A DNA stretch of 64,000 nt from Patescibacteria group bacterium (GTDB taxonomy: Bacteria; Patescibacteriota; UBA1384; XYA2-FULL-43-10; 1-14-0-10-43-13), in the NCBI GenBank assembly GCA_041666325.1, contig JBAYHC010000003.1, positions 159,102 to 223,101 on the forward strand, written 5' to 3'. Position 1 is the stretch's first letter, and each line of letters opens with the position of its first letter. The notes beneath the pieces were generated by a model. It was not told the DNA's origin. It worked only from the letters and a program-made list of their open reading frames with translations, and searched no databases. This document shows positions 3,609 to 56,176 of the stretch, piece after piece. Both the position numbers and the translations under genes were made by a program.

Positions 3609-3618
3609 GGGAGACAAA

Positions 3619-5685: not shown

Positions 5686-5836
5686 TTTCAGGTTCTCCCG
5701 AAGGAGTGATTTAGGTAAAACGCACAAAGAGACACAAACTTGTCAAATCACACCAGGGATAGCCTGGTACTTCGCATAATCCAGAGTCGGTGGTGCTGCA
5801 TTCTCAGGCAAACAACCTTAAGACCAAAGGAGCAAT

Positions 5837-6160
5837 ATGCCCGCACAAAAGGAAATCGATATCACAGAGATCGCCGAAAAGAGTCTATTGGAAGTTCTGG
5901 GGCTACAAGATCTACCGCAGGAAAAACGCTCACCAATTATCGCTAACATGGTAAAAATCATTCAAACTAGAGTTACTGCCCGTATCTTTGACGAATTAGA
6001 TGATAACGGCCTTAAACAGTTTTCCGATTCAGACACTAACCCCAAAAAAACCCGAGCATTTCTCGAAAGTAAGGGCATCGATCTGGACAAGATAACCAGC
6101 GATGAAGTCGTCAATTTCAAAGCAGAACTACTATCTCTTCTTGGCTATAATGTTAAGTAA
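5837..6160 (+). CDS. small acidic helical protein, module 2 partner; paralog of 3243..3608
   Basis: AAGGAG RBS. 107 aa. Same motif pattern as 3243..3608. Confidence 0.7.
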   Translation: MPAQKEIDITEIAEKSLLEVLGLQDLPQEKRSPIIANMVKIIQTRVTARIFDELDDNGLKQFSDSDTNPKKTRAFLESKGIDLDKITSDEVVNFKAELLSLLGYNVK

Positions 6161-6202
6161 AAATTATTTTATTATGCACCAAAGAAAAACAGCGGAGGAA
6201 TT

Positions 6203-9200: not shown

Positions 9201-9901
9201 AGAAATACAAGAACAGACTTGCTGGATTCTGCGAAACGTCGGTAGCCGAGATTACAAGAGAAAGTGCCAATATCAAAGATGAGCCAAGAAGGAAAGCAGC
9301 AGAGCTTCAGGCAAAGATGATCAGTCGTATCCCCGACTCAGTCGGAACAAAAAAGTTTCTTAGTTTGATGGATCAGGTGTCATCGCCCGCAGAACTAAAA
9401 CCCCTGGACAATGATCAGATTATCGCAATGGAACCCGGGCAAGCCAAGCAATATGCTGACCGAATCAGTGGTCAAAACCATGACATTGTAAGAAAATATC
9501 AGGAATTACCAACAAACATTACCAAGAGCTTAACTGGCACCATTGGACCGCTCAAGACCCTGGCAGAGGTTGCCTCGAGCATGCATGACAGCGCCAAAAA
9601 ATCCGAGGGCGATGACCTCGAGGTTATGGGCAGAATCGCAAAGACCTTCGAGGACAGTCTTGGGTCAAACTTTGATATTCAAAGGATAAAGGTCGAACCA
9701 AACCAGACTCCAAACTACGAAAAAATCGAACCTTTTGACATTGCCACCACTGATGACCCGACTAAAAACGAAACAGTAGAGAGCATTGTCTCAGAGGGCT
9801 ATATGTTTAACTCTGAGCTGGCCGGAGTACCTGGTGGCACCATTATCAAGCCCGCCCAAGCGGTCATCTATAAATACCAAGAAGCACCAGCGAGAGCATA
9901 G
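6203..9901 (+). CDS. giant coiled-coil protein B (1232 aa) with A/G-rich hydrophobic hairpin segments; paralog of 3619..5685
   Basis: GGAGG RBS. Hydrophobic stretches VAGKVALATTGVLAASTLSGGAGLLLAPLLY, SATFSLLMGMPLGVQGAG and VGAIATAASASRAYLGMGLAGAGLLATAG. Extensive charged coiled coil. C-terminal domain ARMDFVKRAFTDIL...YYEAYRQATVTL homologous to protein A. Confidence 0.75.
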   Translation: MTPVGEAGGPMDPSIIGDPSYTVNPDNQTSSPGKTVEVTADASKKTEANTDAEITAPVVEKRKTPERLRTERLGIAGELSKTIKERENRRSEEHWGKGRWGKFKEKLNTTDWGKAIKVAGKVALATTGVLAASTLSGGAGLLLAPLLYSQSLKLGFEGGLEGMQHLLRGRKERLGLEAKKQDFLKKSDERIAKVQAAENEFRIAKGKKDRGEINNEEYQKAVDQYSSQVESLTKSISRLESDYLKKEREYINLENSMKIQRATESTALSATFSLLMGMPLGVQGAGHNVIFAPGHGLHFIYKVGETMSSTGVHAIGTSLTHTVGAIATAASASRAYLGMGLAGAGLLATAGKEILNAKKNHQADKQERGTSLWAEVSNDLKAVGKKETVGQREAEAMAQEGSAETYEPPENLKKFAKKTAEHYKEIGRRTNEIDAEMSSLDEEEQRLKTDPTPTDQSRMRLEAIPAQREKLNNEKEELARETEKIKETAELYNLTVNIAGRITQRKNELNQLARDLSSPATIPLIEKAKAELADLYSLRKETWQKIAEKQRLIDEEAASAAASQTSEQPAQQESSPAPSEADFRKFYRENAAGFAEREKARATGQEPSEEYATFDNIYREIDRAENEMRQKEREINELQNRIDRGEVTATSQVREQLFGLTREYLDADRRRDNQKQLLREIYNQAKGAKSPRQTQATPENRTVTGDQPPILDNARSEGNKTSPELPKFESIDPAQIIRAARDPGVRARVISRLNGANSAESFGSLDGVTALEEAVILDELTNRARALMEDPRLSNATPEAAYDTVVLMLDQPEVEEEVGKEQTTTAEEVPGGQEKTPQPEEAETAEAARMDFVKRAFTDILSDTSYAPERINDVDELRLLFGDPLERGRMQSRKFYYEAYRQATVTLVTTPTRDISRYSAILRNLDEGYRKLLARVESDDRDGGSGSEKSPDEKDAEQGKPLEQGETAEPNAEIKQKFEEQLQKDKRIIAESTERAKGFEKYKNRLAGFCETSVAEITRESANIKDEPRRKAAELQAKMISRIPDSVGTKKFLSLMDQVSSPAELKPLDNDQIIAMEPGQAKQYADRISGQNHDIVRKYQELPTNITKSLTGTIGPLKTLAEVASSMHDSAKKSEGDDLEVMGRIAKTFEDSLGSNFDIQRIKVEPNQTPNYEKIEPFDIATTDDPTKNETVESIVSEGYMFNSELAGVPGGTIIKPAQAVIYKYQEAPARA

Positions 9902-18163: not shown

Positions 18164-20992
18164 ATGAAATTTAGATATAGAAGCAAAGAGACCCAAAGCG
18201 ATAACACCAAAAGAGTGTTTAGGGCACGAAGATTCAAGAGGTTCATCACAAAACGCCTCCCTCTTTATTTGTTGTACTTAACCGCATCTCTCATCTTCAT
18301 GTCTGCAGTTGCTTTTGCCTGGTTCACCAAAGATTTGCCCACGCCATCCAAGATTGCTAGCAGGAAGGCTTCTGAATCAACCAAGATCTACGACAGAACT
18401 GGTAATATTTTGCTATACGAAACTGGTGAACAGAAAAGGACTATTGTCAAAGAGGAGGACATTTCCCAATATCTGAAAGATGCCACAATAGCAACTGAGG
18501 ACACAAAATTTTACCAGCATCATGGCTTCGATAGCCGGGCCATCGCATCAGCCGTACTAGAAAAGGTATTAGGAAGAACAAGTCGGGCAAGGGGCGGATC
18601 AACAATTACTCAGCAATATGTTAAAAACGCCCTCTTAAATTCCAATCGATCTCTCACGCGCAAGGTCAAAGAACTTATTTTGGCAATCGAGCTGGAAGTC
18701 ATGTACAGCAAAGACGATATCCTCACCATGTATCTAAACGAGATCCCATACGGAAACAATACAGCTGGGGCAGAAGCGGCTGCACGAATGTACTACGGCA
18801 AAACTGCCAAGGATCTAACATTGTCTGAGGCCGCAACACTTGCTGGTATCCCCCAAAAACCAACTTATTATTCGCCATACGGCACTCACCTCAACGACCT
18901 CGTCAACCGAAGAAACTATGTCCTTGACCGCATGGTCGGAACTGGAAAGATTTCCAGTGAGGAGGCAGAAAAAGCCAAGCAGGAAGACACCACAACGATA
19001 GGCAAATCACTTCGCCCGCGTCGAGATACTATATTGGCTCCCCACTTCGCGATGTATGTGCTAGAAAAGGTGGCAGAAAAATATGGCGAGGAAAAAGTTC
19101 AGAAAGAGGGGTTGAAAATAATTACCTCTCTCGACTTTGACAAACAAAAAATCGCCGAAGAAGCCATCAATAAGGGCACTGACAAGATCACTAAATATGG
19201 CGCAACAAACGCGGCACTGGTTGCGGTTGACCCCAAGACTGGTCAGATTGTAGCCATGGTTGGTTCGCGAGATTATTTTGATGCTTCAATCGATGGCAAT
19301 GTTAACGTCGCTGATTCATTGCGACAACCAGGATCATCATTCAAGCCTATCGCATACGCTACTGCCTTCAAGAAAAAAGAGTACTCTCCCTCTAAAATAC
19401 TGTTCGATGTTGAAACAGATTTCGGCGGAGGCTATAAACCACAAAACTATAATGGACGATTCAATGGTCCAGTTACTATCCGTACCGCCCTCTCTAACTC
19501 ACTAAACATTCCCGCGGTCAAAATTCTTTCACTGGCAACAATGGATAATGTTCTGCGAACCGCTGATGATATGGGCATCACTACCCTGACTCAGCGCGAA
19601 CGCTATGGTCTTTCTCTTGTCCTTGGTTCCGGTGAAGTACGACCAGTAGAAATGGCTGGAGCGTTCGGTGTTTTCGCGAACGGTGGCATCAAGCATGATT
19701 TAAAAAGCGTGCTTAAAGTAACTGATTCCGATGGCAAGGTTCTCTACGAATACAAGCCCAACAAAGATTTTGGGTCAAAGGTACTTGACCCTCAAGTTGC
19801 CTATGAAATTAGCAACATCCTTTCGGACAATAACGCACGCTCAATGGTTTTTGGTCCAAGATCAGCCCTGTTCTTCCCTGAGAGGCCTGTGGCCGTCAAA
19901 ACCGGCACAACTTCAGATTTCAAAGACGCTTGGACTGTTGGCTATACACCTTCACTCTCAACTGCAGTTTGGGTTGGAAATAGCAATGCCACCAAGATGC
20001 GCCAAGGAGCAGATGGTTCTGTTTTGGCGGCGCCAATATTCCATACATTCGTAGAACAGGCACTCAAGGATGTCAAATCAGAAGAGTTTGCCCGTCCCGA
20101 TGGTATCGTTGAATTGGAAGTAGAAAAATATTCAAACAACTTGGCCACTGAACACTCAAAAGAAAAGACAAAAGACATCTTCGCTAGTTGGCAGGTTCCA
20201 ACCGAGAAGGACAGCACTAATGTGGCGGTCAAGCTATGCTTGGGCACAGATAAGCGTGCACCAGCTGACTTCCCCGACAATCTGACCGAGACAAGAACCG
20301 TGTCCCTGGTTCACTCTGAGAGACCGGACAATCCAAATTGGGAAAACCCTGTTCGCTCATGGGCAGAAGCGAATGGCTATGGCGGAGGATCTATTCCTAG
20401 TGATTACTGCACACAAAAAGACTTCGTGCCGAGCATTTCCATAACTTCCCCACTAGATGGATCAACTGTTTCGGGTGACATAACTATAGGCGCAAACGTC
20501 AGTAGCACATTTGAGGTTAGTTCTGTAGAATTCTTTATCGACGACATATCGATTGGCAGCACAGCTGCACTGCCCTACGCAATCCCCTACAATACAAAAA
20601 ATCTCTCGACAGAGCGAACGCACAAGGTTCAAGCTGTTGCAGTGGACAAGAATGGCTCAACATCCAAAGCCGATATCACAATTGGCATCGCACGGGACCA
20701 AGAGCCCCCCGCAATCAGTCAAATCTCTGCCGTTTCAACCAACGCTACTGCATCAATCTCATGGACAACTTCAGAAGAGACGGTTTCTCAGGTTTTTTAC
20801 GACATTATTGCAAGGCAAGCGCTCTCGGATTATCGGCAAACCAGTACCCGGTCTACCTCGCCTGGCAAAAATCATTCTGCGTCACTCTCAGCACTCACCC
20901 CCAACACAAGATATTACTACCGAGTAGTTTCAACAGATTCCAACGGAAACTCAACTGCTTCAGAAGAGAGAACTTTTGTTACCCTGCCCTAA
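18164..20992 (+). CDS. class A penicillin-binding protein (PBP1A-type transglycosylase/transpeptidase) with a C-terminal Ig/FN3-like extension
   Basis: GT51 motifs EDTKFYQHHGFD and GGSTITQQ. Transpeptidase motifs SSFKP, SNS and KTGT. About 250 extra C-terminal residues that look beta-rich. Confidence 0.88.
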   Translation: MKFRYRSKETQSDNTKRVFRARRFKRFITKRLPLYLLYLTASLIFMSAVAFAWFTKDLPTPSKIASRKASESTKIYDRTGNILLYETGEQKRTIVKEEDISQYLKDATIATEDTKFYQHHGFDSRAIASAVLEKVLGRTSRARGGSTITQQYVKNALLNSNRSLTRKVKELILAIELEVMYSKDDILTMYLNEIPYGNNTAGAEAAARMYYGKTAKDLTLSEAATLAGIPQKPTYYSPYGTHLNDLVNRRNYVLDRMVGTGKISSEEAEKAKQEDTTTIGKSLRPRRDTILAPHFAMYVLEKVAEKYGEEKVQKEGLKIITSLDFDKQKIAEEAINKGTDKITKYGATNAALVAVDPKTGQIVAMVGSRDYFDASIDGNVNVADSLRQPGSSFKPIAYATAFKKKEYSPSKILFDVETDFGGGYKPQNYNGRFNGPVTIRTALSNSLNIPAVKILSLATMDNVLRTADDMGITTLTQRERYGLSLVLGSGEVRPVEMAGAFGVFANGGIKHDLKSVLKVTDSDGKVLYEYKPNKDFGSKVLDPQVAYEISNILSDNNARSMVFGPRSALFFPERPVAVKTGTTSDFKDAWTVGYTPSLSTAVWVGNSNATKMRQGADGSVLAAPIFHTFVEQALKDVKSEEFARPDGIVELEVEKYSNNLATEHSKEKTKDIFASWQVPTEKDSTNVAVKLCLGTDKRAPADFPDNLTETRTVSLVHSERPDNPNWENPVRSWAEANGYGGGSIPSDYCTQKDFVPSISITSPLDGSTVSGDITIGANVSSTFEVSSVEFFIDDISIGSTAALPYAIPYNTKNLSTERTHKVQAVAVDKNGSTSKADITIGIARDQEPPAISQISAVSTNATASISWTTSEETVSQVFYDIIARQALSDYRQTSTRSTSPGKNHSASLSALTPNTRYYYRVVSTDSNGNSTASEERTFVTLP

Positions 20993-22284
20993 GAAATTTG
21001 CTCAGCAAGCTGTGCAACGTTTTTGAGACTATTTACCGGCTTAAATCCAAGACTACTGGCTTCTTTTTCGCGATCTAATTGGCGCCTTACCGTGCGGACT
21101 TCTCCCGACAGACCCACCTCACCAAAGATACAAGACTTCACTGGCAAAGGCCTGCCCTTGTATGATGAAATAATTGCCGCACAAACAGCGAGGTCGGCTG
21201 CTGGTTCAGATAATTTTATTCCACCGATCACATTGAGATAAATATCAGAGTTGCCCAAGTTGATTCTAGTTGTTTTGCTAATAACGGCAGCCAATAGATT
21301 CACACGGTTCAAATCAAAGCCCGAGCTAGTTCTTTTGGGGTAACCAAAGTTTGTCGATACCACCAGGGCCTGAACCTCAACCAGAAGCGGCCTGGTACCT
21401 TCTAGTGCAACCGTGATGACATTGCCGGGATTATCCCTATACTCAGCTAAAAAAAGTTCTGACGGATTCGTTACCTCAACCAACCCCTTTTCCTGTATAG
21501 AAAATATACCAACTTCATTGGTGGCGCCGAAGCGATTCTTTATGCCGCGAAGTAAACGTGCATCGTGAAAACGATCTCCCTCAAAGTACAAAACAACATC
21601 TACGATATGCTCAAGCATTCGTGGCCCAGCCAGAACACCATCCTTTGTCACATGGCCTACGATAATTATTGGTATGCCGGATATTTTTGCTAGACGTTGC
21701 AGGAATATCCCACATTCCCTGACCTGGGTAACACTTCCCGCCGTCCCTGTAACCGAGTTAAGGTAAACAGTTTGAATTGAATCTACAATGACAAGACTTG
21801 GCTTGGTTGCAAGAATCCTGTTCTCAAGGGCCTCCAGGTCACCGCTAGAGATTAATTCTAGGTCAGGAGAGGTAATACCGAGACGATTAGCCCTTTCTTT
21901 AATCTGGCTAGCGGATTCTTCGGCGCTAACATAGAGCGTATTAGAAATGTTATCTGAAGTTTGGAGCAGTATTGTTGACTTGCCAATACCAGGCTCACCG
22001 CCAATGAGAACCATTGATCCTGGTACAATACCACCACCCAAAACCCGATCAAACTCAGATATCCCAGTGGTAATCCGAAAATTATTTTCTACATTAACGT
22101 CAGCCAACTTCTTGGGAATAAGCTTGGGCTGAGTTTTAATACTTTGACCCCCCTGTGACATTTCGGGTATTGTCATCTCAGAGATGGTATTCCACTCGCC
22201 GCACGCACCACACTGGCCAGACCAAGCAGAGAAATCGTTTCCACAGTTGCTGCAAAAAAATACCTTCTTGGCTTTCTTAGTCAT
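20989..22284 (-). CDS. radA: DNA repair protein RadA/Sms
   Basis: N-terminal Zn finger CSNCGNDFSAWSGQCGACGEW, Walker A GGEPGIGKST, the KNRFG motif, and a Lon-like C-terminal domain. Confidence 0.88.
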   Translation of the reverse strand: MTKKAKKVFFCSNCGNDFSAWSGQCGACGEWNTISEMTIPEMSQGGQSIKTQPKLIPKKLADVNVENNFRITTGISEFDRVLGGGIVPGSMVLIGGEPGIGKSTILLQTSDNISNTLYVSAEESASQIKERANRLGITSPDLELISSGDLEALENRILATKPSLVIVDSIQTVYLNSVTGTAGSVTQVRECGIFLQRLAKISGIPIIIVGHVTKDGVLAGPRMLEHIVDVVLYFEGDRFHDARLLRGIKNRFGATNEVGIFSIQEKGLVEVTNPSELFLAEYRDNPGNVITVALEGTRPLLVEVQALVVSTNFGYPKRTSSGFDLNRVNLLAAVISKTTRINLGNSDIYLNVIGGIKLSEPAADLAVCAAIISSYKGRPLPVKSCIFGEVGLSGEVRTVRRQLDREKEASSLGFKPVNSLKNVAQLAEQIS

Positions 22285-23950
22285 GCTTCCTCATATCTAA
22301 TATATTGAGACACACCTCCGACGAACCATTCCATGTGTCAAGATTCAAATAAAAAGCTACATCATAGTCACCATGCAAAAGATCCTTATCCGAAAAATTG
22401 AAAAATATAGACTTCAACCGCTTGGAATCCTTGCAAACCCGTAAACTCAGGTGGTTCTTTGCACTGCCCACGAGTCTTGTGTCTTGTAATGTCACCCCTC
22501 TCAAGACAAAAATTGGCTTATTGTTTCCCAGACCAAAGGGTTGCAGCTGATCTATTTTATCATACAGACGCTCATTGATATCGAATGCGTCGAGCTCCGC
22601 ATCAATAAACAATTTTCTCACTAACAAACTTTCATCAATTTCACGGTTCGAGACAGCTGTCATTGCCTCGACAAAGGCAGGAAAAGATTCTTTCTTGACA
22701 GTTAGGCCGGCTGCCCCACTGTGACCGCCGAATTTCTCCACACTCGATGATACTTTCTCTATTAAGTCTAAAATATGCACCCCTTCAACACTGCGGGCGC
22801 TTCCCGTCAATACATCACCCTCATCGGCAAAAACAAAAGACGGCCGATAGAATTTTTCCGTGAGTCGACTGGCAGGAGGACCAAGCACACCTCGCTCCCA
22901 CTTTCCCTTTACGATGATGACTTTGCCCTGAAACTTGTCCAAATTAATCTGAGCCAGTGATTCCTCAAAAACCTTCTCCATCATTTTCTGACGCTCAGTA
23001 TTTTTAACATTCAGAAGCTCTGCGTCTCTCTTGGCTTTAGACACATCATTTGTTGTCAAAAGCTCATACGATCTGACAGCATGGTCAATTCTTCCGGGCG
23101 TATTAACCCTCGGACCAATCTGGAAGCCAACAGAATAAGCATCAACCTTAGACGGCACAATGCCAGAAACTACTATTAATTCCCGCAATCCTAAGTTGCG
23201 ACTTTTCCTCATCACGTCAAGTCCATACTTAGCAAAAACACGGTTTTCGCCTGTCAACGGAACCATATCTGCTATTGTTGAAAGCGCGACCAAATCTAAA
23301 TTCCATTTCAGGAACGATTCGCTTATCTCCGGAAAAATCGAGGAAAGAGCCTGAATTAGTTTGTATGCCACACCACAGCCGCAGAGGTTTTGGTATGGAT
23401 ACACGCACTTCTCCAACTTTGGGTTGATGACAGCAAATGCATCCGGAATCTTGTCTCCGGGCAGATGGTGATCAGTTATTATCAGATCAACCATCTTATC
23501 CTGGCAGTACTGAGCCTCAACTGTATTTCTAATTCCTAAATCAATCGAAATTATTAACGCGCACCCCTTCTCGATAAGATAGTCAATGCCACGTTGGCTA
23601 AGGCCATAACCGTCGGCCCTGGTTGGAATATAAATTTCAGTATCTACCCCGATCTTTTGTAGCGCTCGGAACATAAGTGCCGCACCAGGTACGCCGTCTG
23701 CATCATAGTCAGCAAAAATGCCAATCTTCTCGGCTCTCTCTTTCGCTCCTCGAATCCTCTCAACAGCTTTTGCCATATCAGGAAGAAGAAAGGGGTCATG
23801 AACCCCTGTATCAAAGCTGGGATTGATGATCTCTTCAACATGGGGATCTTTCTCTGTGCCAAGAAAGCCGCGGTTCGCCAAAATCTGGAGTATGATTTCG
23901 TCATACTTTTTTTCGGCTATTATCCAGTTTTTTTCTAGTAAGCTCTCCAA
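22277..23950 (-). CDS. recJ: single-stranded-DNA-specific exonuclease RecJ
   Basis: DHH motifs (DYDADGV, ITDHH), a DHHA1 region, and a C-terminal OB domain. 557 aa. Confidence 0.85.
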   Translation of the reverse strand: MESLLEKNWIIAEKKYDEIILQILANRGFLGTEKDPHVEEIINPSFDTGVHDPFLLPDMAKAVERIRGAKERAEKIGIFADYDADGVPGAALMFRALQKIGVDTEIYIPTRADGYGLSQRGIDYLIEKGCALIISIDLGIRNTVEAQYCQDKMVDLIITDHHLPGDKIPDAFAVINPKLEKCVYPYQNLCGCGVAYKLIQALSSIFPEISESFLKWNLDLVALSTIADMVPLTGENRVFAKYGLDVMRKSRNLGLRELIVVSGIVPSKVDAYSVGFQIGPRVNTPGRIDHAVRSYELLTTNDVSKAKRDAELLNVKNTERQKMMEKVFEESLAQINLDKFQGKVIIVKGKWERGVLGPPASRLTEKFYRPSFVFADEGDVLTGSARSVEGVHILDLIEKVSSSVEKFGGHSGAAGLTVKKESFPAFVEAMTAVSNREIDESLLVRKLFIDAELDAFDINERLYDKIDQLQPFGLGNNKPIFVLRGVTLQDTRLVGSAKNHLSLRVCKDSKRLKSIFFNFSDKDLLHGDYDVAFYLNLDTWNGSSEVCLNILDMRKHD

Positions 23951-37961: not shown

Positions 37962-38124
37962 GCTATCTTTTGGTTTTTCGGTCTCAACTTCGTTATTCAT
38001 AAAAATGCCATTCATTAAGGATTGAAATCATATTATCAAACTCGAGGCAATTTTTAAAGCCGCACCTTTACATTCGCCATCTTGATTGGTAAGATCACTG
38101 CGAGCCAACAAGGGAGGTGAAAGC

Positions 38125-38805
38125 GTGCATTATGAACCAAACTGGCCACACGAGGTCATATCTGAAGCGGCGTGCAACAGGACCACAGCGATTAGGCTTG
38201 CAACGGCTTCGAGGCGCGCAATCCTTGGTCGTTCACATCAAACCAAGAGGATTCCCATACAAGCATTACTTGACATCGGCGGCTTTCTTTACGAGAGACG
38301 GTCAGAGGGCTTGTTCCGAGACCAGCTAATTACCCGCGGGAACAATCCAAATCTTGCCAAGCAATTTCTAATTACTGCCGACCCAAGGATGCGCTTGGTC
38401 CTTCCGCCAAAAGTCAGGACAACGAAGGGTGATGAATCAATCACCTATTGGGACGACAAACTGTCGCCCACCAAAGAGCGGTTCACTATTGGCCACGAGG
38501 TTGCACACACATTCCTTTTTGACCGAGATAAAGACACGCCAACCAAGGTCGGTTGGTGGGTAGCGGCAGGTATTTTCGACCGCAGAGTCGAATACTTCTG
38601 CGATGTTTATGCTGCCGCTCTTCTGATCCCGCCGATCTATGTCAAAATTGTTGCCAGCGCACTCGCCGGCCACGGCCCAGCAATTGACACAGACACCATC
38701 ATCGATCACTTTGGAATTCCAATCAAAGTCCTCTACTGGATGGTGATGAGTTTATCAAAAACATACTGGAGCATTCACCACCAGCATTTCCTAGAATTTG
38801 ATTAG
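38125..38805 (+). CDS. ImmA/IrrE-family (COG2856) zinc metallopeptidase
   Basis: HEVAH zinc motif within TIGHEVAHTFLF. GTG start at 38125 with an AGGGAGG RBS 7 nt upstream. Confidence 0.65.
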   Translation: MHYEPNWPHEVISEAACNRTTAIRLATASRRAILGRSHQTKRIPIQALLDIGGFLYERRSEGLFRDQLITRGNNPNLAKQFLITADPRMRLVLPPKVRTTKGDESITYWDDKLSPTKERFTIGHEVAHTFLFDRDKDTPTKVGWWVAAGIFDRRVEYFCDVYAAALLIPPIYVKIVASALAGHGPAIDTDTIIDHFGIPIKVLYWMVMSLSKTYWSIHHQHFLEFD

Positions 38806-38967: not shown

Positions 38968-38996
38968 TTGACTGATACGTATTATTGTGCTATAAT
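38968..38996 (+). promoter_or_regulatory. near-consensus sigma70 promoter TTGACT-N17-TGcTATAAT (extended -10)
   Basis: -35 at 38968-38973, TG at 38987-38988, -10 TATAAT at 38991-38996. Confidence 0.6.
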
Positions 38997-39027
38997 GTAT
39001 AGCAGTATGGTTTGGAAGGAGATCGCT

Positions 39028-39282
39028 TTGGACAAGATCAGCGTCAACCCAGAAGCACTCTCCCCGGTAGCTCGCGAGAAGGTTTTCCCCCTCGTTAGAC
39101 TACTGGACTCCAGCCCCGATATCATTCTCCGTGACCTTGCTCCAGAAAATGCCGGAAGCGTCGGTAACCTGATCGATACCACCAATCCGGCTGACTGGAA
39201 CCTCTATATATCTCTAGCTGAAGCCGCTGACCAAAAAGCTGGCAATGCCAGCAAGGAGACAGCAATGCTCTGCCGGAGATGA
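39028..39282 (+). CDS. small hypothetical protein (about 85 aa) between a strong promoter and a strong terminator
   Basis: AAGGAG RBS at 39016-39021 followed by an in-frame TTG at 39028. The track ORF 38968..39282 starts upstream of the predicted TSS. No family recognised. Confidence 0.4.
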   Translation: MDKISVNPEALSPVAREKVFPLVRLLDSSPDIILRDLAPENAGSVGNLIDTTNPADWNLYISLAEAADQKAGNASKETAMLCRR

Positions 39283-39292
39283 GAGTCCGCTT

Positions 39293-39321
39293 GAGTGCGC
39301 ACCCCGCGCACTCATTTTTTT
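39293..39321 (+). terminator. rho-independent terminator
   Basis: GAGTGCGC-ACCCC-GCGCACTC followed by ATTTTTTT. Confidence 0.7.
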
Positions 39322-40060
39322 ATCCGGAAACATTTTGGAGAAAGCGTTCACTCTTAACGTTTGATTCCAATATGTCTCTGATATAGGCAGAGAGGAGCAC
39401 TGCCGCTTCGTCGGCCAATGATGATTCAACATTCAAATGACCGATAAGACCAAAACCTTTTTCCTCGATGATTCTGAAAAATTTAATCAGATTGTCAGAT
39501 ACAGCGTAACCATGACGAAATAGCCTTTGGCACTCTGAGCAAATTATGCCGCCCTCCAAACCGTCCCAGAAATTGTTGCCTGGCTTCAGTTGCACATGAC
39601 AATGGCGGCAGTGAGATAGCTCGGGCCAAAAACCAGCTTGTTTCAGAAGGCCGATCTCAAAGACACGCAGAACCAATGGATCTTCGGTTGTTGCCAAACT
39701 CTGCAGGCTTTGCACCAAAAGAGAGAAAACCTCGGAGGATTTTAGTTCTTCCTTCTCGAACCTATCCACCAACTCTCCGACATAAAAAGCATTGGCAATT
39801 TTTCTTATATCTGTCTGGATTAGGGAAAAATCTGACTTAATTGAAGCGCCTGTGACGGTAAAAAATGTGCGACCTGGATAAAGCTGAAGATCAACAAGCA
39901 TAAACGGTTCAAGGCTACCAGCAAGCCGCGCTGAGATTTTGCGCACACCGCGAGCCATCGCCTTAACTTTGCCAAAACGCTCAGTAAATATAGTCAGGAT
40001 TCTATCTGCTTCAGAAAAATCTTGCCGCTTGATGACTATCCCCAACGTCTTTTGATTCAT
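39320..40060 (-). CDS. recO: DNA repair protein RecO
   Basis: N-terminal OB fold region GIVIKRQDFSEADRILTIFT and a C-terminal zinc motif CRHCH...CSEC. 246 aa. Confidence 0.8.
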   Translation of the reverse strand: MNQKTLGIVIKRQDFSEADRILTIFTERFGKVKAMARGVRKISARLAGSLEPFMLVDLQLYPGRTFFTVTGASIKSDFSLIQTDIRKIANAFYVGELVDRFEKEELKSSEVFSLLVQSLQSLATTEDPLVLRVFEIGLLKQAGFWPELSHCRHCHVQLKPGNNFWDGLEGGIICSECQRLFRHGYAVSDNLIKFFRIIEEKGFGLIGHLNVESSLADEAAVLLSAYIRDILESNVKSERFLQNVSG

Positions 40061-45206: not shown

Positions 45207-45324
<118 letters not shown>

Positions 45325-45539: not shown

Positions 45540-48462
<2,923 letters not shown>

Positions 48463-48483
48463 ATATTCTCTAGAGGTCAACGC

Positions 48484-49221: not shown

Positions 49222-49662
49222 TTACTTTGAGGATTGTTGGTCGATTGCCTCACTGATTTTCGAGTCGCCCCTAATATCCTCATAGTAAAGGATTTGGTCC
49301 CGATTAATGTACATTACTCCTTCGGGGCCATGGATCTCGCTTCCAAGTTTGACCAATGAAAGATTCTTTGCAGCGCTTGATCCGGAGCCGCTGAGGTTCG
49401 ATTGGTTCTCATCCCTTAGCTTGGCCAAATCCTCTGGCTTGAAATAGTATACATCCCGAAGCACCACTATCTGCTGGTCAGCGTTTGAAACATGACCAAA
49501 GTACATCTGACCATTTGTGAGAAAAACGGCCTGCTTCTTTGCATTGGCCCCTTGTGTCGTTTCCGGCCGCGAAGAACGACGAGAGCCATAAAGTCTATAC
49601 CCATAATAGCTAGCGACTCCAACCAAGACCAAAACCGAGATTGTCAGCACAAATTTTTTCAT
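49222..49662 (-). CDS. secreted or membrane-anchored hypothetical protein
   Basis: ATG at 49660-49662 with an AAGGAG RBS. N-terminal MKKFVLTISVLVLVGVASYY signal/anchor. Confidence 0.55.
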   Translation of the reverse strand: MKKFVLTISVLVLVGVASYYGYRLYGSRRSSRPETTQGANAKKQAVFLTNGQMYFGHVSNADQQIVVLRDVYYFKPEDLAKLRDENQSNLSGSGSSAAKNLSLVKLGSEIHGPEGVMYINRDQILYYEDIRGDSKISEAIDQQSSK

Positions 49663-49984
49663 AATTCTCCTTGTGTTTCGCATAAAAAGTAAATTTTACT
49701 CTCTGCCGATGAATTATAACCGATAGTTTGTGACGATAATTTAGACAGATTAAACAAAAAACGAAAAATTATTACCTTTTCTTTGTCGTTAAGGCACATT
49801 TATTTGGGTCATTTACTATCAGATACTGAAGTCGAACATGCAGCTTGGATTAACTGGATAAACGAACAAGGGGTGAGCAAGATAGTCTTAATTTTCATTA
49901 TTGAGAATTATTACTCCGGTCGATACCCCCACGACTAACCGAAAAGTCTGCATGGCCATAGATTAGTAAAAATAGGAGAAAGCA

Positions 49985-50959
49985 GTGAATACAATTACAC
50001 GCATTAAGAACGCAACGCGCACCTTGGCCTTGTCTGGTGCACTTGTTCTGACAAGTGGTGCAGGTTTGACAATGGCTGGCTTCAGCAACACTTCGACTAC
50101 AACCAGCGGTACGACAGTATCAGGCAGCAGCTCAACATTGGCTGACATCACGAGTAAAAACCAACTTACCGGACCACAATCACTCAACAAGAATATTACG
50201 AAGATCAATCGCGATCTCAACGTCAAGGTCCTGAACGTTAACCATGAGGACAATTACGTTGATTTTTACCTCAACACTGGCAAGAATGATCTTTTCAAAA
50301 ACACAAAAGTTGAGGACGTATCAACTGGCAGCATCAATGCACGCGTTGCCCTGAATAATAAATCAAACGTTGGCGGCACAAGTGGCAGCACAACCGGCAC
50401 ATCGACACAATCAGTTCTATCAGGCGCTGCAAGCGATCCTGTTCTTAGCAACGCAATCACCGGCCCAGAGTCTGCCAACATCAACAAGGTAGCGCTAAAC
50501 ACTAGCCGCAACCTAGAGATCAAGAACATTGCTGATATCAACAATGATGTTGACATAAATGCCAACACGGGCAAAAACGATGTTATGAAAAACACAGTCG
50601 TTGGAGATGTTTCGACAGGCAACATCAACGTTGCAGGCAGTATCAACAACGTTGCAAACAGCGATCAGTGCATAACCTGCCCTGATTTGTTGGGCCTTTT
50701 CAATGGCAGCGGTAGCGGGGCTGCAAACGTTAGTTCAGACCTTTCTAACAGCACAACCGGTCCAGACTCAGTCAATATCAACAAAGTAAAGGTTAACGAT
50801 TACACGAACGTCGAGGTCAAGAATATCGCCCACATTGACAACAACGTCGATGTTTATGCCAACACAGGCCACAACGATGTTGTGAAAAACACAGTCGTTG
50901 GAGATGTTTCGACAGGTAACGTTAGCGTAGACTTTGCAGTTACCAACCAGGCCAACTAA
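49985..50959 (+). CDS. secreted Asn/Thr-rich repeat protein (3 repeats of about 95 aa)
   Basis: Signal peptide. Repeat unit TGP(D/E)S-N-N...ANTGxND(V)xKNTVVGDVSTGNIN. Paralog of 51029..52975. Confidence 0.65.
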   Translation: MNTITRIKNATRTLALSGALVLTSGAGLTMAGFSNTSTTTSGTTVSGSSSTLADITSKNQLTGPQSLNKNITKINRDLNVKVLNVNHEDNYVDFYLNTGKNDLFKNTKVEDVSTGSINARVALNNKSNVGGTSGSTTGTSTQSVLSGAASDPVLSNAITGPESANINKVALNTSRNLEIKNIADINNDVDINANTGKNDVMKNTVVGDVSTGNINVAGSINNVANSDQCITCPDLLGLFNGSGSGAANVSSDLSNSTTGPDSVNINKVKVNDYTNVEVKNIAHIDNNVDVYANTGHNDVVKNTVVGDVSTGNVSVDFAVTNQAN

Positions 50960-51028
50960 CACGCAGATTGACGAAGGTTAAGGGTTCACACCCTTAACCG
51001 CGCCAGTCTGTGAAGAATAATCAAGGAT

Positions 51029-52975
51029 ATGCCCATGAAAAAGATTATTAGTTATAAAAAGGTAGCACGAGTGTTTGTCACTCTCGCTACAATATTTTCT
51101 CTCCTTCTGCCAATTTCAGCCGCCACGCCAACCTTTGCTGTTGGGCCAGACCAACCAGTGGGGCCGCAAGGACCAGTTGGTCCACAGGTTCCAGTGGGGC
51201 CGCAAGGACCAGTTGGTCCACAGACAGATGGTGAGATACAAACACAAACAGCAACCAGTGGCGCTACAGCTGATCCAGTCATCACAGAAAGCAATAATGT
51301 TACTGGGCCTGATTCGACAAACACAAATCAAACATCATCGAATTCAGAGACAAATATCGAAAACATAAATGATGCAAATATCGAAAACCAAACAACACTG
51401 ACAGCCAATACTGGCAAAAACGACATTGGCAAGAACACTGTGACAGGAGATGTTTCCACAGGATCGATTAACGGTTCTGTCAACGTCATCAATATTGCCA
51501 ACTCCGAACTGGCCCCCGGAAGCACTGTCGGGTCACAGACTGTTGATGGATCACAAACCGGTCAGATAGTATTGAATCCGATCAACCAGAGGTCAGACCT
51601 TTCCAATACCAGCACCGGGCCTGACTCCACAAACAACAATACTGTCTCTAGTAATAACATCATCAAAGTTGTCGACCAAAACAACGCAGAAGCTCTGAAC
51701 AACCTAGTCATCGATGCCAATACCGGCCAAAACAACATCGGTGGTAATACTAAAATCGGAGATGTCACGACTGGAAACATTAACCTCTCAGCCAATCTGA
51801 TCAATCTGCTGAATGTTATGTCGCCGAATTTGACTCTAACACTAGACATTTGGTCAGTGCTCGGAAATTTCAGTGGAGATATAATTCTTAGCAATGGCAC
51901 GACCGGGCCACAATCAAACAATGAAAATAGCATCAACACGAGCGACAGCACTGCAATATCAACTACAAACAACAGCACGATTGATAACGTCTTCAATTTC
52001 CAAACCAACACCGGAGGCAACACAACGGATTCAGGTACCGCAATAGGTAATGTGTCTACAGGTGAAGCAAAAGTGCAGAGCTCAACAACTAACGTAGCCA
52101 ATCTGGATACACCAGTGCTTTATCTGATTAATGTCTTTGGCGAATGGGACGGAGCTCTGGACGGTGTCGATCCGAACAGTGTGATCATTAACACAATGAC
52201 GGGACCGGGCTCAACCAATTTTAATGAGAAAGAGAATAATCAAAGCGTTGATATCACTACAGAGAATAATGCCTCGGCAAGCAACATCGTGACCGTCAAA
52301 GCCAACACTGGCGACAACCATGTCGGCAAGAACACAGTCACTGGCAATCTTAAAACCGGATCAATAAATGTCACTGCTAGCGCCGTCAATATCCTCAATT
52401 CATTCGGGGACAATGCAAAAAATCTAATCCTGAAGGTAATCAATATCTTTGGTAATTGGAAGGGCAATGTTGCAAAACAACCAAAACCAGCCAATAGCAA
52501 TGGTGGTTCGAACAACCAGGTCCCAGGAGGAACGAGTCAGAACAATCCTACACCCGCGACAACATCGACAGAGAGTCCGCAAGCCCCTACTACTAATAAT
52601 GAATCAACTCCAGCGATGCAATCAACCGCAGCCATCGAGAGCAGCACCGGCAGCACAACAAGCAACAATGTTTCAGCCAATCAGAATAGCCAAAAACCAG
52701 CCCAGTCTCCTGTCAACAAGCTCGCAAGCTCAACCAGAAGGGTCCTGTCATCCGAGCAACAACTACCACAAACAATAGATGAGAAGATGGTCCCAACAGA
52801 AAATTCCGTTGATACAGCCGGTGATTTCTCGGGCGTTGTTCTGGCTGCCACAGATGAACAATTGCCATTGGGAGGATCGAGAACACCCTTAGTACACATT
52901 GCTTTGAGCGCTCTTGGAATAACCTTACTCTGGGGACTAGTAGAATTGTTGGCCAGATATTCTAGAGGAAGATAG
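51029..52975 (+). CDS. secreted repeat protein with collagen-like GXY tract, four Asn/Thr-rich repeats, Pro/Thr/Ser-rich stalk and a C-terminal Gly-Gly + TM + basic-tail anchor
   Basis: Signal peptide, (GPQGPVGPQVPV)x2, the same ANTGxN...GDVSTGxIN repeats, and a C-terminal LPLGGSRTPLVHIALSALGITLLWGLVELLARYSRGR. Confidence 0.65.
   Translation: MPMKKIISYKKVARVFVTLATIFSLLLPISAATPTFAVGPDQPVGPQGPVGPQVPVGPQGPVGPQTDGEIQTQTATSGATADPVITESNNVTGPDSTNTNQTSSNSETNIENINDANIENQTTLTANTGKNDIGKNTVTGDVSTGSINGSVNVINIANSELAPGSTVGSQTVDGSQTGQIVLNPINQRSDLSNTSTGPDSTNNNTVSSNNIIKVVDQNNAEALNNLVIDANTGQNNIGGNTKIGDVTTGNINLSANLINLLNVMSPNLTLTLDIWSVLGNFSGDIILSNGTTGPQSNNENSINTSDSTAISTTNNSTIDNVFNFQTNTGGNTTDSGTAIGNVSTGEAKVQSSTTNVANLDTPVLYLINVFGEWDGALDGVDPNSVIINTMTGPGSTNFNEKENNQSVDITTENNASASNIVTVKANTGDNHVGKNTVTGNLKTGSINVTASAVNILNSFGDNAKNLILKVINIFGNWKGNVAKQPKPANSNGGSNNQVPGGTSQNNPTPATTSTESPQAPTTNNESTPAMQSTAAIESSTGSTTSNNVSANQNSQKPAQSPVNKLASSTRRVLSSEQQLPQTIDEKMVPTENSVDTAGDFSGVVLAATDEQLPLGGSRTPLVHIALSALGITLLWGLVELLARYSRGR
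51159..51230. repeat. perfect 36-bp tandem duplication encoding PVGPQGPVGPQV twice
   Basis: ccagtggggccgcaaggaccagttggtccacag(gtt/aca) repeated back-to-back. Confidence 0.75.
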
Positions 52976-53077
52976 CTCCAGTGCTTTTAAAACTAAAACC
53001 TCACCGTATTTGGGTGAGGTTTTAGTTTTTCTTTTGTTATAATAATCAGCTTATCGCTTCTTCTGGCAAAATAGCTT

Positions 53078-54259
53078 TTGATTTTAATCGGGATAAAACT
53101 CATGGGTCCAATTCCTTTGTTCTGGGAGGAACACAACCACAACGTCACAAAAATAATCGGTGATTATGATTTAATTTCAAGCCTAGACCACCTTTGCATC
53201 TCCTCGTCCAATCCCCGCCGGATCGGCAAGAAGGTTGTCATACCTGGCAAATACGTCAAGCTCCCTGCTGTTCGCGAGATAGAGATCGGAGGAGCTCAAT
53301 GCACGCTTATGCCAATCAACTACCAGGACAAACACGTTGCATTCCTGCTCATAAATAAGCATTTTGATAGTCTCGAAAACTATCTACCGCTGATTCAGAG
53401 CTTGGCTGAACTTTCTGTTGCTCACTATGTCGAAAAAAGTAAATACACACCGGACTCAACAGATGTGTTTGTTTCCAACTTGCTCAATCATGATGCCTAC
53501 GATCTTTCAGTCTACAGGACCGAAGCAAGGTCTTTGGGTTATAACTTTAAAATGAAGCGCATCGCCATAGCAATTCACCTGGCAAACTTTAGCTACAGAC
53601 AGCTCTTCTCCCCAAACCATACTGGCTTTGAACGCGAAGAAACTATCAAGAAATGGAAGAAAAGGATCGAATACACCATCAATAGCTTTTTCACCAGCAG
53701 TAAGGATATAATTACTGCCTATATCGGAGAAGATACGTTCGCAGTTTTCAAAACGGTAGAAAAAGACGAAGATGAAAAACTAGGCAGACACATCAAGTTA
53801 TCTCACAGAGCCATCTTCAGCCCTCTCCGTGACGCTTCGATCTCCGATATCACAGTCGGCTTCAGCAATGCCTATTCTGGTCTAATAGGGATAATAAAAT
53901 CGTCCAAAGAGGCGAAAATGGCCCTATCTCTCGGCAATCGAACCAAGGGACCTAATCACAGCTACCACATCGATGATTTTGGTCTCCTGAGCCTGATAGC
54001 ACATGTCGACGAAGAAACTCAAAAACGATTCGCCCAAAGAATTCTGGGGAAAATCACCGACAGCAATATACTCCTCACTCTTGAAATCTTGCTGGAGGAA
54101 AACTTCAATATCTCTCATGCCGCAGAACGCCTCAAGGTCCATCGCAACACAATCATCTACCGCATCCATCAGATCGAGGATATCTTGGGGTACGACCCGC
54201 GGTCATTTGATTCGGTGGTTAATTTCAAAATTGCCTTGTTGATAAACAAGAGATTCTAG
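53078..54259 (+). CDS. PucR/CdaR-family transcriptional regulator
   Basis: C-terminal PucR-type HTH NISHAAERLKVHRNTIIYRIHQIEDILGYDPRS. Confidence 0.65.
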   Translation: MILIGIKLMGPIPLFWEEHNHNVTKIIGDYDLISSLDHLCISSSNPRRIGKKVVIPGKYVKLPAVREIEIGGAQCTLMPINYQDKHVAFLLINKHFDSLENYLPLIQSLAELSVAHYVEKSKYTPDSTDVFVSNLLNHDAYDLSVYRTEARSLGYNFKMKRIAIAIHLANFSYRQLFSPNHTGFEREETIKKWKKRIEYTINSFFTSSKDIITAYIGEDTFAVFKTVEKDEDEKLGRHIKLSHRAIFSPLRDASISDITVGFSNAYSGLIGIIKSSKEAKMALSLGNRTKGPNHSYHIDDFGLLSLIAHVDEETQKRFAQRILGKITDSNILLTLEILLEENFNISHAAERLKVHRNTIIYRIHQIEDILGYDPRSFDSVVNFKIALLINKRF

Positions 54260-54260
54260 G

Positions 54261-54734
54261 CTAGCTTGATCCTGTGATCTCACTGAATCGCCTCGAGACA
54301 TAGCTCTTGTAACGCTTTTGCAGATCGCTGATAGCCTCTTTGTCCAGCCTGCCATTTTCAAGCGAAATCCAAACAGAGGGCATGTCATAGAGATATCGAC
54401 CGATTCCCCACTGCACGGCAGCTCTTTTCATTGCATCAGAAAATCCACCCTTTGTTGGCTCAATATTTGTCTCCTCTGCTCCATCATACTTTGTAATCCA
54501 CTCGCTCTTATCATCGATTCGAATTGAAATTCCACACTTCACACCCTTACTATCCCACCGGTCAAATTCGTTCTTCCAATTAAGCGGGCCAACAATTTCA
54601 TCTAATCTCTCTTGGATCGCTCGATTTGTAACATACGCAAGAGCCATTCCACTTGTTCGGTCGGCATTTATTGAACCGATGCGCCACTCAATATCACCTG
54701 CCTCGAATGGCTTCCGAAGATTGCCCAAATTCAT
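54261..54734 (-). CDS. Rad52/Rad22-family single-strand annealing protein (Sak/DdrA-like)
   Basis: IQERLDEIVGPLNW (cf. RAD52 ALRQRLGPEY) and GGFSDAMKRAAVQWGIGRYLY (cf. [21 protein letters not shown]). 157 aa. Confidence 0.7.
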   Translation of the reverse strand: MNLGNLRKPFEAGDIEWRIGSINADRTSGMALAYVTNRAIQERLDEIVGPLNWKNEFDRWDSKGVKCGISIRIDDKSEWITKYDGAEETNIEPTKGGFSDAMKRAAVQWGIGRYLYDMPSVWISLENGRLDKEAISDLQKRYKSYVSRRFSEITGSS

Positions 54735-54919
54735 CTCGCTCCTTTTCCAATATAATCAATCATTGCATTATAGACTGCGCCGAGCCTTCTCCCAAGTAAT
54801 AATTAGTTTGATTTGTCAGCCGCGCAAATAAAAAAATGGCCTCTGGATAATGGGCCAAGAGAGCCTAAATTTACAAACTAAAAACGTCCAAATGTTGAAC
54901 TTGGCAATAAGTTCCGAGC

Positions 54920-56176
54920 CTATGGCCGACCAGATACAGTTTTCTGCATCAATATCCGCTTGTCCAACACGTTCATTTTATCTTGAGCATTATAAACAAT
55001 CGGTTCTACTAGGCTGTAGCCAGGCTTGCTCGCCAATATTTTATACTTGCTTTGAGAGAGTAATGCGGAGAACTTACCGTTCTTGTCCGAAATGACAGTC
55101 TTGATTAGCCTGGTGCCAGTATCGTCCATGACGCGGATTAGGGCGAGAGACAGGGGTTGAGAATTATTTTTGTCTAGCACAGATCCCCAAGGAGAATACC
55201 TGAATTTTGCGTAGGCGTTGTAGATCCAAACAACCCAAAGCAGAATATACGTAACAACGATGGGCCAATCAGAGGATGCGAAAGTCCTAGAAATTTTTCC
55301 TATTATCGTCACCGTTCCGATAGCGAGACTGGCGAAAGAAACATAAACCATGAAACGCTCAAACTTTGCCAAAGAAACAACCCAATGGTACTTTTCCTTA
55401 ATCGATTCACTTGTTGGCACCAGAGCAATTCTCGGAACAATCAAGCTCTCTCGCAAGCTTTTAACTTCTATCACTGCGTTCGGTTGATAATATTTATCGG
55501 GTACTAAAGAAAAGTCATATGATTTTTTAATAGCATTGATAACATATCTACCAGGAGGAGCGATAAAACCATATTGACCATCGCTATCAGTATAAGCAAA
55601 GGCAACCACCTTGCCTTCTCCTGCGCTGCTTTCTGTCTTCGACCCAGCCTCAACTAGCTCAACACGAACCATCGGGATTGGCACCTCTGTTCCAATCTCA
55701 ACTACTCGTCCCCAACCTCTCTTTTTCCGACGAAATCCAACCAGATAGATGATCGAGTTCCAAAGAGAAAGAGAAAACTCCCTCAAAGAAGAGAAAACGG
55801 TTACGGCATTTGCAGCTGGAGCAGCCATAGCACCAATACCAGCTATGCTCAGGGCAGCCGCTGAAATTGCATTAGGAACCTGTTCTGAAGGTATGCCGAT
55901 ATATTCTGCAATCTTCATTATTGGAGCTTCCACTATTTCGATTGGATCAGGCACATTTGGATCCGAGAAAATTCCACCATATCCTCTAACCTCCTTAGTG
56001 AAACCAAAGGTCGAAATAAAATAAAGGGCAATAAAAATAACTGCTGCACGAGTGATCGTTAGCAGAAACATACCTTCATTTTTATTATCCCTGAAAGATT
56101 TTATTTTATCTCCGTATGCAATGACTATATTATAATGTTTATTGCGATGAGGAGCAAACATGGCCAGTGCTTGCAA
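54920..56176 (-). CDS. membrane protein with carboxypeptidase-regulatory-like (transthyretin-like) beta-sandwich domains
   Basis: Segments GRVVEIGTEVPIPMVRVELVEAGS...YTDSDGQYGF and ALIRVMDDTGTRLIKTVISDKNGKFSA; several TM helices. Start uncertain. Confidence 0.5.
   Translation of the reverse strand: MQALAMFAPHRNKHYNIVIAYGDKIKSFRDNKNEGMFLLTITRAAVIFIALYFISTFGFTKEVRGYGGIFSDPNVPDPIEIVEAPIMKIAEYIGIPSEQVPNAISAAALSIAGIGAMAAPAANAVTVFSSLREFSLSLWNSIIYLVGFRRKKRGWGRVVEIGTEVPIPMVRVELVEAGSKTESSAGEGKVVAFAYTDSDGQYGFIAPPGRYVINAIKKSYDFSLVPDKYYQPNAVIEVKSLRESLIVPRIALVPTSESIKEKYHWVVSLAKFERFMVYVSFASLAIGTVTIIGKISRTFASSDWPIVVTYILLWVVWIYNAYAKFRYSPWGSVLDKNNSQPLSLALIRVMDDTGTRLIKTVISDKNGKFSALLSQSKYKILASKPGYSLVEPIVYNAQDKMNVLDKRILMQKTVSGRP

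Follow-up and report, generated by a model that had tools for sequence, protein, structure and literature searches.

A Sak-type gene of the Rad52 family in a Patescibacteria chromosome: probable single capture from a phage and retention beside a surface-protein block

Results and discussion

The Rad52/Sak gene and its relatives

The subject of this analysis is a gene of the Rad52 family at positions 54261 to 54734, on the minus strand, of a 64-kb stretch of DNA from a Patescibacteria group bacterium (contig JBAYHC010000003.1, positions 159,102 to 223,101; the whole stretch is called the window below). The gene starts with ATG and encodes a protein of 157 residues, assigned as a Rad52/Sak-type single-strand annealing protein (SSAP) on the evidence of Pfam and PHROG matches, homologues and a structural model. 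It converges on a gene for a PucR/CdaR-family regulator, beyond which lie genes for repeat-rich surface proteins. The initial annotation of the locus, made from the sequence alone, described an orphan and possibly domesticated annealing protein, perhaps controlled by its PucR-type neighbour, in a genome that also encodes RecO; this description stands, apart from the control by PucR.

The open reading frame (ORF) exists as described, and both blocks that had been quoted as diagnostic of the Rad52 N-terminal domain, RLDEIVGPLNW and SDAMKRAAVQWGIGRYLY, are read in its translation. Profile searches bear out the family assignment, with scores far above chance: residues 5-124 match positions 8-143 of the 153 positions of Pfam PF04098 (Rad52_Rad22) at 61.8 bits and E 9e-17, where the curated cut-off is 20.3 bits, and PHROG 1097 ('Erf-like ssDNA annealing protein', ssDNA being single-stranded DNA) is matched at E 2e-55. 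A scan of the protein against NCBIfam matched zero models. Over residues 6-120 the protein shares 50.8% identity (E 4e-32) with the 'sak' product of Lactococcus phage ul36.t1; its identity to homologues in Paenibacillus, Salmonella and other phages is 55-60%. NCBI already labels it 'Rad52/Rad22 family DNA repair protein' (MFA5927397.1, MFA6532130.1). By these matches the window protein is a Rad52-family SSAP of the Sak type, otherwise ordinary for its family.

The wider family has many members: over 3,000 matches were obtained at E <= 0.001 and, in a search with the profile of the clade described below, 7,638 scored matches at E <= 1e-20. It is overwhelmingly borne by phages or prophages: homologues occur in 166 GenBank phage records and at 39 loci of IMG/VR, the latter all at no more than 61% identity. 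The homologue of Paenibacillus phage SV21 is 60% identical, and those of many P22-like Salmonella phages, which are labelled 'Erf' and occur with an Arf cofactor, are 55-58% identical. As judged from these comparisons, the N-terminal domain is highly conserved across phages of unrelated hosts. Among GTDB species representatives, a scan found only distant homologues, at 15 loci with 43-60% identity; these lie in genomes of Firmicutes, Lentisphaeria and others outside the Patescibacteria. The scan was pattern-limited, and the absence of Patescibacteria from it is weak evidence. A separate matter of naming is that the 'Erf' proteins of records such as NC_005841 (ST104), NC_004348 (ST64T) and NC_011976 (epsilon34) correspond to Pfam Rad52_Rad22, a mismatch that could mislead the transfer of annotation.

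A small clade with a conserved C-terminal helix

In an alignment of the family, the core of ordinary Sak members is followed by a PxLPxWALP segment and then by a long tail of variable sequence. In the window protein and seven others, the C-terminus is instead a short, conserved helix with the motif DLxKRYxxYVxKR[FY] (residues 132-154). A profile built from these eight proteins recovers the same eight, after which the score falls from 283 to 216 bits, and the clade is therefore tiny among the 5.8 billion proteins of the database. Six members (P0001-P0006) are chromosomal copies in Patescibacteria and two (P0007 and P0008) are encoded on phage-like contigs. P0008 is found on 35-kb contigs together with Amidase_2, YopX, DUF1064 and an N6/N4 methyltransferase, and the gene for P0007, carried by the phage-like contig that is closest (L028), comes after a series of small ORFs that overlap and before a gene for single-stranded DNA-binding protein (SSB). 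Both proteins share 59-66% identity with the chromosomal copies, and both have the same unusual C-terminal helix, which is thus a lineage trait and not a truncation that accompanied domestication.

The closeness of P0007 and P0008 to the chromosomal copies, helix included, would also suit a role in host defence, in which the chromosomal Sak co-assembles with, or competes against, the Sak of phages that infect Patescibacteria; a passage in PMC11846896 names phage recombinases as known targets of immunity systems. Against this conjecture, a PADLOC scan of six local proteins matched zero defence models and no defence genes adjoin the gene in the window, and we consider it extremely improbable.

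Evidence for a single old capture and for retention

The six chromosomal copies are 67-80% identical to one another, and a neighbour-joining tree (300 bootstraps) groups them, with 100% support, to the exclusion of P0007, P0008 and two Sak proteins of the ordinary type. Within the six, the pairs formed by the window and locus L027 (97%) and by L005 and L025 (90%) are consistent with how similar their neighbouring genes are. Among the window, L005 and L006, the Rad52 proteins are 71-73% identical, versus 36-53% for the syntenic PucR regulator, repeat proteins and membrane protein m153. Rad52 orthologues differ by 0.20-0.23 nonsynonymous substitutions per site (dN) while synonymous sites are saturated (proportion of synonymous differences, pS, 0.69-0.81); the only finite estimate of dN/dS among chromosomal pairs is 0.11, and the ratio is about 0.1 or lower overall. 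All six genomes have an intact reading frame. The base composition of the window gene is host-like (GC 0.456 and third-position GC 0.449, versus window means of 0.449 and 0.459).

Signals for expression were found upstream of the gene. A candidate sigma-70-like promoter, TTGGGA-17-TATAAT, at 54767 to 54795 on the minus strand has 10 of 12 consensus matches and is the top promoter-like site in the interval 52900-55000, and a Shine-Dalgarno sequence, AAGGAG, read at 54740 to 54745 on the same strand, lies 5 nt upstream of the ATG. The CTATAATG -10 region is found again ahead of the closest orthologue, in L027; within the window it has no second occurrence, and no shared operator was found. The gene appears to form a transcription unit by itself.

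No phage genes were found around the gene in the annotated parts of the window. Gene tables and Pfam scans covering most of the window showed no integrase, terminase, capsid, SSB or exonuclease, in a window where several genes are without a Pfam match and few proteins were scanned against PHROGs, and no att-like direct repeats were found flanking the gene. The orphan status proposed in the initial annotation thus holds for the annotated parts of the window, and the gene is not placed among phage genes as ordinary phage cargo is. RecE-like exonucleases were listed by Lopes et al. 2010 beside Redbeta, Erf or Sak4, not Sak (PMC2896510). Because Sak is not among the recombinases paired with exonucleases, and because the copy on L028 is paired with SSB, the absence of an exonuclease partner carries little weight. 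A complete 23S rRNA gene (45541 to 48465; Rfam large-subunit model, 2508 bits) and a 5S rRNA gene (45207 to 45323; Rfam, 97.6 bits), both on the minus strand, lie 6 kb from the Rad52 gene, and these rRNA genes, together with the dcw cluster, RecJ, RadA, RecO, Fpg, the aminoacyl-tRNA synthetases and the glycosyltransferase cluster described below, indicate that the locus is chromosomal.

Taken together, the single clade, the contrast with neighbouring genes, the low dN/dS and the promoter and Shine-Dalgarno signals speak against a remnant in decay. That a phage gene was captured once, long ago, and has since been held under purifying selection in a Patescibacteria lineage is well supported by these sequence comparisons, and the term 'domesticated' in the initial annotation is apt for a clade of six orthologues that stands apart from the phage-like copies, is under purifying selection, and has in the window a host-like composition and a promoter-like site of its own. 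The contrary view, that the gene is inert cargo left as the last gene of a decayed prophage and has no role in the host, draws on the phage-borne character of the family, on the phage-like contigs (L008, L028) that carry the closest phage-borne relatives and on the lack of the gene in the related genomes L029 and L030. It is difficult to reconcile with a frame that is intact in six genomes whose neighbouring genes have diverged to 36-53% identity, with a dN/dS of about 0.1 or lower at saturated synonymous sites, with the lack of any other phage gene in the annotated parts of the window, and with the composition and expression signals described above; inert cargo is distinctly unlikely.

Predicted structure

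The AlphaFold2 model of the Rad52 protein, built with 120 homologues, has a mean predicted local distance difference test score (pLDDT) of 90.2 and a predicted template modelling score (pTM) of 0.84. Its elements are a beta-hairpin (residues 15-35), a helix (37-47), a three-stranded sheet (53-87), two helices (97-108 and 113-117) and the C-terminal helix (132-154), and it matches predicted models of viral Rad52/59/22 proteins with E values of 3e-13 to 2e-6 and template modelling (TM) scores of 0.57-0.76. Residues Y34, K103 and R104 do not vary among the 120 homologues aligned; R18 and R38 are invariant in an alignment of 18 sequences and at least 90% conserved in the alignment of 120. A weak hhalign alignment (E 0.03) to human RAD52 pairs R18, Y34, R38 and W53 with R55, Y65, R70 and W84, and K103 and R104 were aligned by eye. 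On this basis, R18, Y34, R38, K103 and R104 are likely counterparts of human R55, Y65, R70, K152 and R153. The Rad52 N-terminal fold and the groove residues are thus supported, not proven against solved structures.

The PucR regulator and the surface-protein block

The ORF that converges on the Rad52 gene (53078-54259, plus strand) more likely starts at ATG 53102, as in the Joint Genome Institute (JGI) call of 385 residues. Its product (53102 to 54259) matches the Pfam families HTH_30, the PucR C-terminal helix-turn-helix (E 1.5e-18), and GGDEF_2, with partial matches to CdaR-like models of NCBIfam. Its stop codon ends at 54259 and that of the Rad52 gene begins at 54261 on the opposite strand, with one base between them; the PucR-type identity and the 1-bp spacing given in the initial annotation are thus confirmed by Pfam and by the positions of the stop codons.

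The PucR gene belongs to a block of four genes, of which the others encode repeat-rich secreted proteins of about 600 and 300 residues and the m153 membrane protein of about 150 residues; Pfam families were found only in PucR. The larger repeat protein in the window (51029 to 52975, plus strand) has 648 residues and no Pfam match. Its translation and tandem repeat show GPQ repeats of collagen-like type and a membrane anchor at the C-terminus, and it has homologues in L005, L006, L029, L030 and others. The smaller (49985 to 50959, plus strand) has 324 residues and repeats, encoded by the 59-nt repeat family D2, that are paralogous to those of the 648-residue protein; the secreted proteins of the block are built of 'NTGxNDxxKNTxxGDVSTG'-type repeats. 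The last member, m153 (49222 to 49683, minus strand), is a membrane protein of 153 residues whose family was found at 80 or more metagenome loci. The block was recognized in the window (49222-54259) and at L005, L006, L025, L029, L030, L039, L047 and L056, and it adjoins the 23S rRNA gene in the window, L029 and L030.

All six chromosomal Rad52 copies sit directly at one end of this block, in two arrangements between which the order of the block genes is circularly permuted. In arrangement A, which is that of the window and the identical contigs L001-L004, of L027 (P0002) and of L026 (P0005), the Rad52 gene converges on PucR. In arrangement B, which is that of L006/L007 (P0006, 'bacterium ADurb.Bin400'), L025 (P0004) and L005 (P0003), it lies directly downstream of m153, and at least three genes separate it from PucR in L005, L006/L007 and presumably L025. 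The far flank of these loci, where visible, is a glycosylation or envelope cluster. At L005, the six small plus-strand 'genes' called at 6250-8883 are artefacts, being antisense to a minus-strand repeat-protein gene that was left uncalled, and a second copy of m153 is present at 9217-9630; these two features indicate a partial duplication of the block. The small ORFs upstream of the Rad52 gene at L005 had been considered as a possible phage remnant, which was rejected when they gave no meaningful PHROG or Pfam matches (one marginal PHROG match, E 0.002). A circular mobile cassette was also considered as the source of the permuted order, but a local duplication with subsequent loss is the likelier course: the block is partly duplicated at L005, and the unit is flanked by neither an integrase nor repeats. 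At the PucR end of the block, L005 also carries (positions 1-802) a gene with a weak match to the SMODS domain, the nucleotidyltransferase of systems like the cyclic-oligonucleotide-based antiphage signalling system (CBASS).

The control of the Rad52 gene by PucR that had been suggested in the initial annotation is not supported. The two genes are adjacent at three of the six loci and are tail-to-tail at all three, an orientation that makes a common promoter impossible. Upstream of PucR, a strong intrinsic terminator at 52989 to 53029 on the plus strand (inverted repeat I3, with a 17-bp stem that is 100% complementary) parts it from the gene for the 648-residue protein and from the other surface-protein genes, and PucR accordingly appears to be transcribed alone. 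Since genomes without the Rad52 gene still have PucR together with the repeat-protein block, the block is the likelier target of PucR.

Some other form of coupling between the Rad52 gene and PucR or the surface-protein block could be envisaged, such as rearrangement of repeats by annealing, or antisense interference with PucR. The stop codons at the three convergent loci are separated by 1 nt or 19 nt or share 9 nt, and in the window the gap between them holds no detected terminator; with stops so close or overlapping and no terminator detected, the transcripts may overlap. The block genes contain internal DNA repeats of 59-173 nt that are up to 93% identical, and the genes on the other side of the Rad52 gene differ among the six loci while the block is constant. 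This linkage may, however, simply be inherited from a single capture, PucR is adjacent at only half of the loci and tail-to-tail whenever it is, no shared operator was found, and the block occurs without the Rad52 gene at L029, L030, L039, L047 and others; such coupling is very unlikely. We give only a very slim chance to the specific version in which the Rad52 protein is a functional part of a module with PucR, the repeat-rich surface proteins and m153, either driving expansion, contraction and shuffling of the repeats by annealing or moving and rearranging with them as a five-gene cassette. Changes of the repeats might then give surface variation in an episymbiont-type bacterium, and the fixed position beside the surface-protein block in two permuted arrangements is the sole feature of the locus that could yield novelty.

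The distribution of the block is wider than that of the Rad52 gene. The scan of metagenome contigs with the m153 alignment, which yielded the 80 loci mentioned above, found no Rad52 homologue at any of them, even at a tblastn threshold of E <= 10. At L029, PucR, both repeat proteins and m153 are followed by a 23S rRNA gene that is 81-90% identical to that of the window, and L030 has the same synteny from m153 to 23S rRNA with 83-85% identity. In a tree of m153, which has low resolution, carriers and non-carriers of the Rad52 gene are interleaved. The distribution is compatible with one gain followed by losses.

Proposed origin and role

We consider it fairly likely that a Sak-type phage gene was captured once and kept as a stand-alone, apparently self-transcribed chromosomal gene whose product, by analogy, would form rings and anneal DNA. 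According to this proposal, an ancestor of a small lineage of Patescibacteria, also known as the Candidate Phyla Radiation (CPR), would have acquired the Sak gene from a phage in a single event, and the gene would have been kept since then in the chromosome, apparently with transcription of its own. Its product is predicted to assemble into rings that bind ssDNA in a basic groove and to anneal complementary strands without ATP, as do Sak of phage ul36 and human RAD52, from which these properties are extrapolated. The clade-specific helix at residues 132-154 would take the place of the long variable tail of ordinary phage Sak. The host would thereby gain an annealing activity independent of RecA, or a recombination-mediator activity, in addition to that of RecO, and SSB and RecJ of the host would plausibly supply the ssDNA substrate, RecJ in a putative resection role. 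The captured gene probably now serves the host.

Several results weigh against this proposal. A Foldseek search of the model against the PDB gave nothing below E 0.1 (Redbeta had E 0.18), searches of the PDB with the single sequence and two profiles found no RAD52 chain, and the hhalign alignment to human RAD52 is weak (E 0.03) and spans 54 columns. As far as the recovered contigs extend, the Rad52 gene is missing from at least two relatives with the block (L029 and L030), and it is therefore dispensable and accessory. The N-terminal domain of Sak evolves slowly everywhere, which makes the identity among the six copies a weaker proof of selection at the level of the host, and because the domain is conserved everywhere, the gap in identity between Rad52 and the genes beside it is in part a property of the family and not the result of host-specific selection.

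The closest characterized system is Sak of phage ul36 with the other members of PHROG 1097, with which the window protein shares its Pfam family, the predicted N-terminal fold and the invariant basic and aromatic residues. It differs from them in being encoded on a chromosome, with no phage genes found nearby and no neighbouring SSB or Arf-type cofactor, and in having the short helix instead of the PxLPxWALP segment and the long variable tail, some of which contain CxxC pairs. The N-terminal domain of eukaryotic Rad52, with Mgm101, also belongs to PF04098 and has the same order of elements as the model (hairpin, helix, three-stranded sheet, helix); its identity to the window protein is very low, and the window protein lacks the C-terminal half that binds Rad51 and RPA. 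RecO is the bacterial functional analogue of Rad52, which anneals SSB-coated ssDNA and mediates the loading of RecA. It is unrelated in fold and family, and it is a universal housekeeping protein, whereas the Rad52-like gene is accessory and patchy. The coexistence of the two that was pointed out in the initial annotation is upheld, since the gene at 39320 to 40060 on the minus strand of the window matches RecO_N (E 1e-21) and RecO_C (E 1e-25).

DdrA of Deinococcus radiodurans resembles the window protein in being a chromosomal, non-prophage member of the Rad52 family that is kept by its host. Harris et al. 2004 reportedly found that DdrA protects 3' ends rather than annealing strands. An alternative for the window protein is a DdrA-like function, in which its role would be to bind the 3' ends of ssDNA and shield them following damage or desiccation, instead of annealing strands, possibly as part of a stress regulon. 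The orthologue P0006 (OQA04927.1) is named DdrA in NCBI by automatic annotation, a borderline IrrE-like M78 peptidase is encoded in the window at 38086-38805, 16 kb away, and DdrA is itself the only well-studied precedent for a domesticated Rad52-family protein in a bacterial chromosome (PMC515370). The best matches of the window protein are nevertheless phage Sak and 'Erf-like' proteins with 50-60% identity, no regulon link was found for its gene (no search for RDRM sites was made) whereas DdrA belongs to the response to radiation and desiccation, the M78 gene has no DdrO-like XRE partner beside it, and the sequence of the -10 region of the Rad52 gene is found nowhere else in the window. With neither a DdrO partner nor a shared motif, an IrrE/DdrO-type link to DdrA was dropped, and a DdrA-like function is regarded as unlikely.

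The genomes of Patescibacteria are very small, and accessory functions are expected to be shed from them. The retention of a phage annealing protein beside RecO, RecJ and RadA in such genomes suggests that RecA-independent annealing, or processing of incoming ssDNA, is useful to these bacteria. If our proposal is correct, this would be a second, independent bacterial adoption of a Rad52-family protein after DdrA of Deinococcus, and a protein of 157 residues would be a compact candidate tool for recombineering in lineages that have no genetic system. One search of the literature on Rad52-family proteins in Patescibacteria found no paper on the subject, and a survey of the superfamily that includes 1,178 bacterial Rad52-family entries does not discuss the Patescibacteria lineage (PMC11783212). 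The conceptual gain is modest, because the protein is conventional for its family and is already labelled by NCBI.

Other features of the window

Further recombination genes of the window, known from precomputed Pfam tables, include those of RecJ, a 5'-3' ssDNA exonuclease (22277 to 23950, minus strand; DHH, DHHA1 and RecJ_OB), and RadA/Sms (20989 to 22284). Upstream of the Rad52 gene and co-directional with it is the gene for a CarboxypepD_reg membrane protein of 418 residues (Pfam; 54920 to 56176, minus strand), which has a homologue in L027 that is 82% identical and which opens an envelope cluster with a PMT_2 glycosyltransferase, several GT2/GT4 enzymes and methyltransferases. The DNA of the window is also present on a 687-kb contig of the European Nucleotide Archive, for which Pfam tables include the division and cell wall (dcw) cluster from MraZ to FtsQ, PBP1, TyrRS and ArgRS; our own scans of the window add Fpg, a class II aminoacyl-tRNA synthetase and MraZ.

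The 23S and 5S rRNA genes of the window occur together with no adjoining 16S gene, and one public assembly ends exactly at the 5S gene. In L029 (13726-15282), the related 23S gene has an insertion of about 1.5 kb, possibly an intron; introns in rRNA genes are common in the phylum.

Near recO, the plus-strand gene at 38086-38805 that was mentioned in relation to DdrA encodes a protein of 239 residues with an HEVAH zinc-protease motif and a match of 22.5 bits to Peptidase_M78, 'IrrE N-terminal-like' (cut-off 22); no XRE/DdrO-type partner gene was seen beside it. Between this gene and recO, the plus-strand region 38968-39325 has a strong sigma-70-like promoter by eye (TTGACT-17-TATAAT) followed by about 320 nt and a GC hairpin with a T run. 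The region folds far better than its shuffles (z = -4.9), has no Rfam match and contains an ORF of 104 residues; it may represent a novel small RNA or small protein. Upstream of a TerC gene, at 3243-9901 on the plus strand, genes for two DUF5663 proteins alternate with genes for proteins of 688 and 1232 residues that have no Pfam match.

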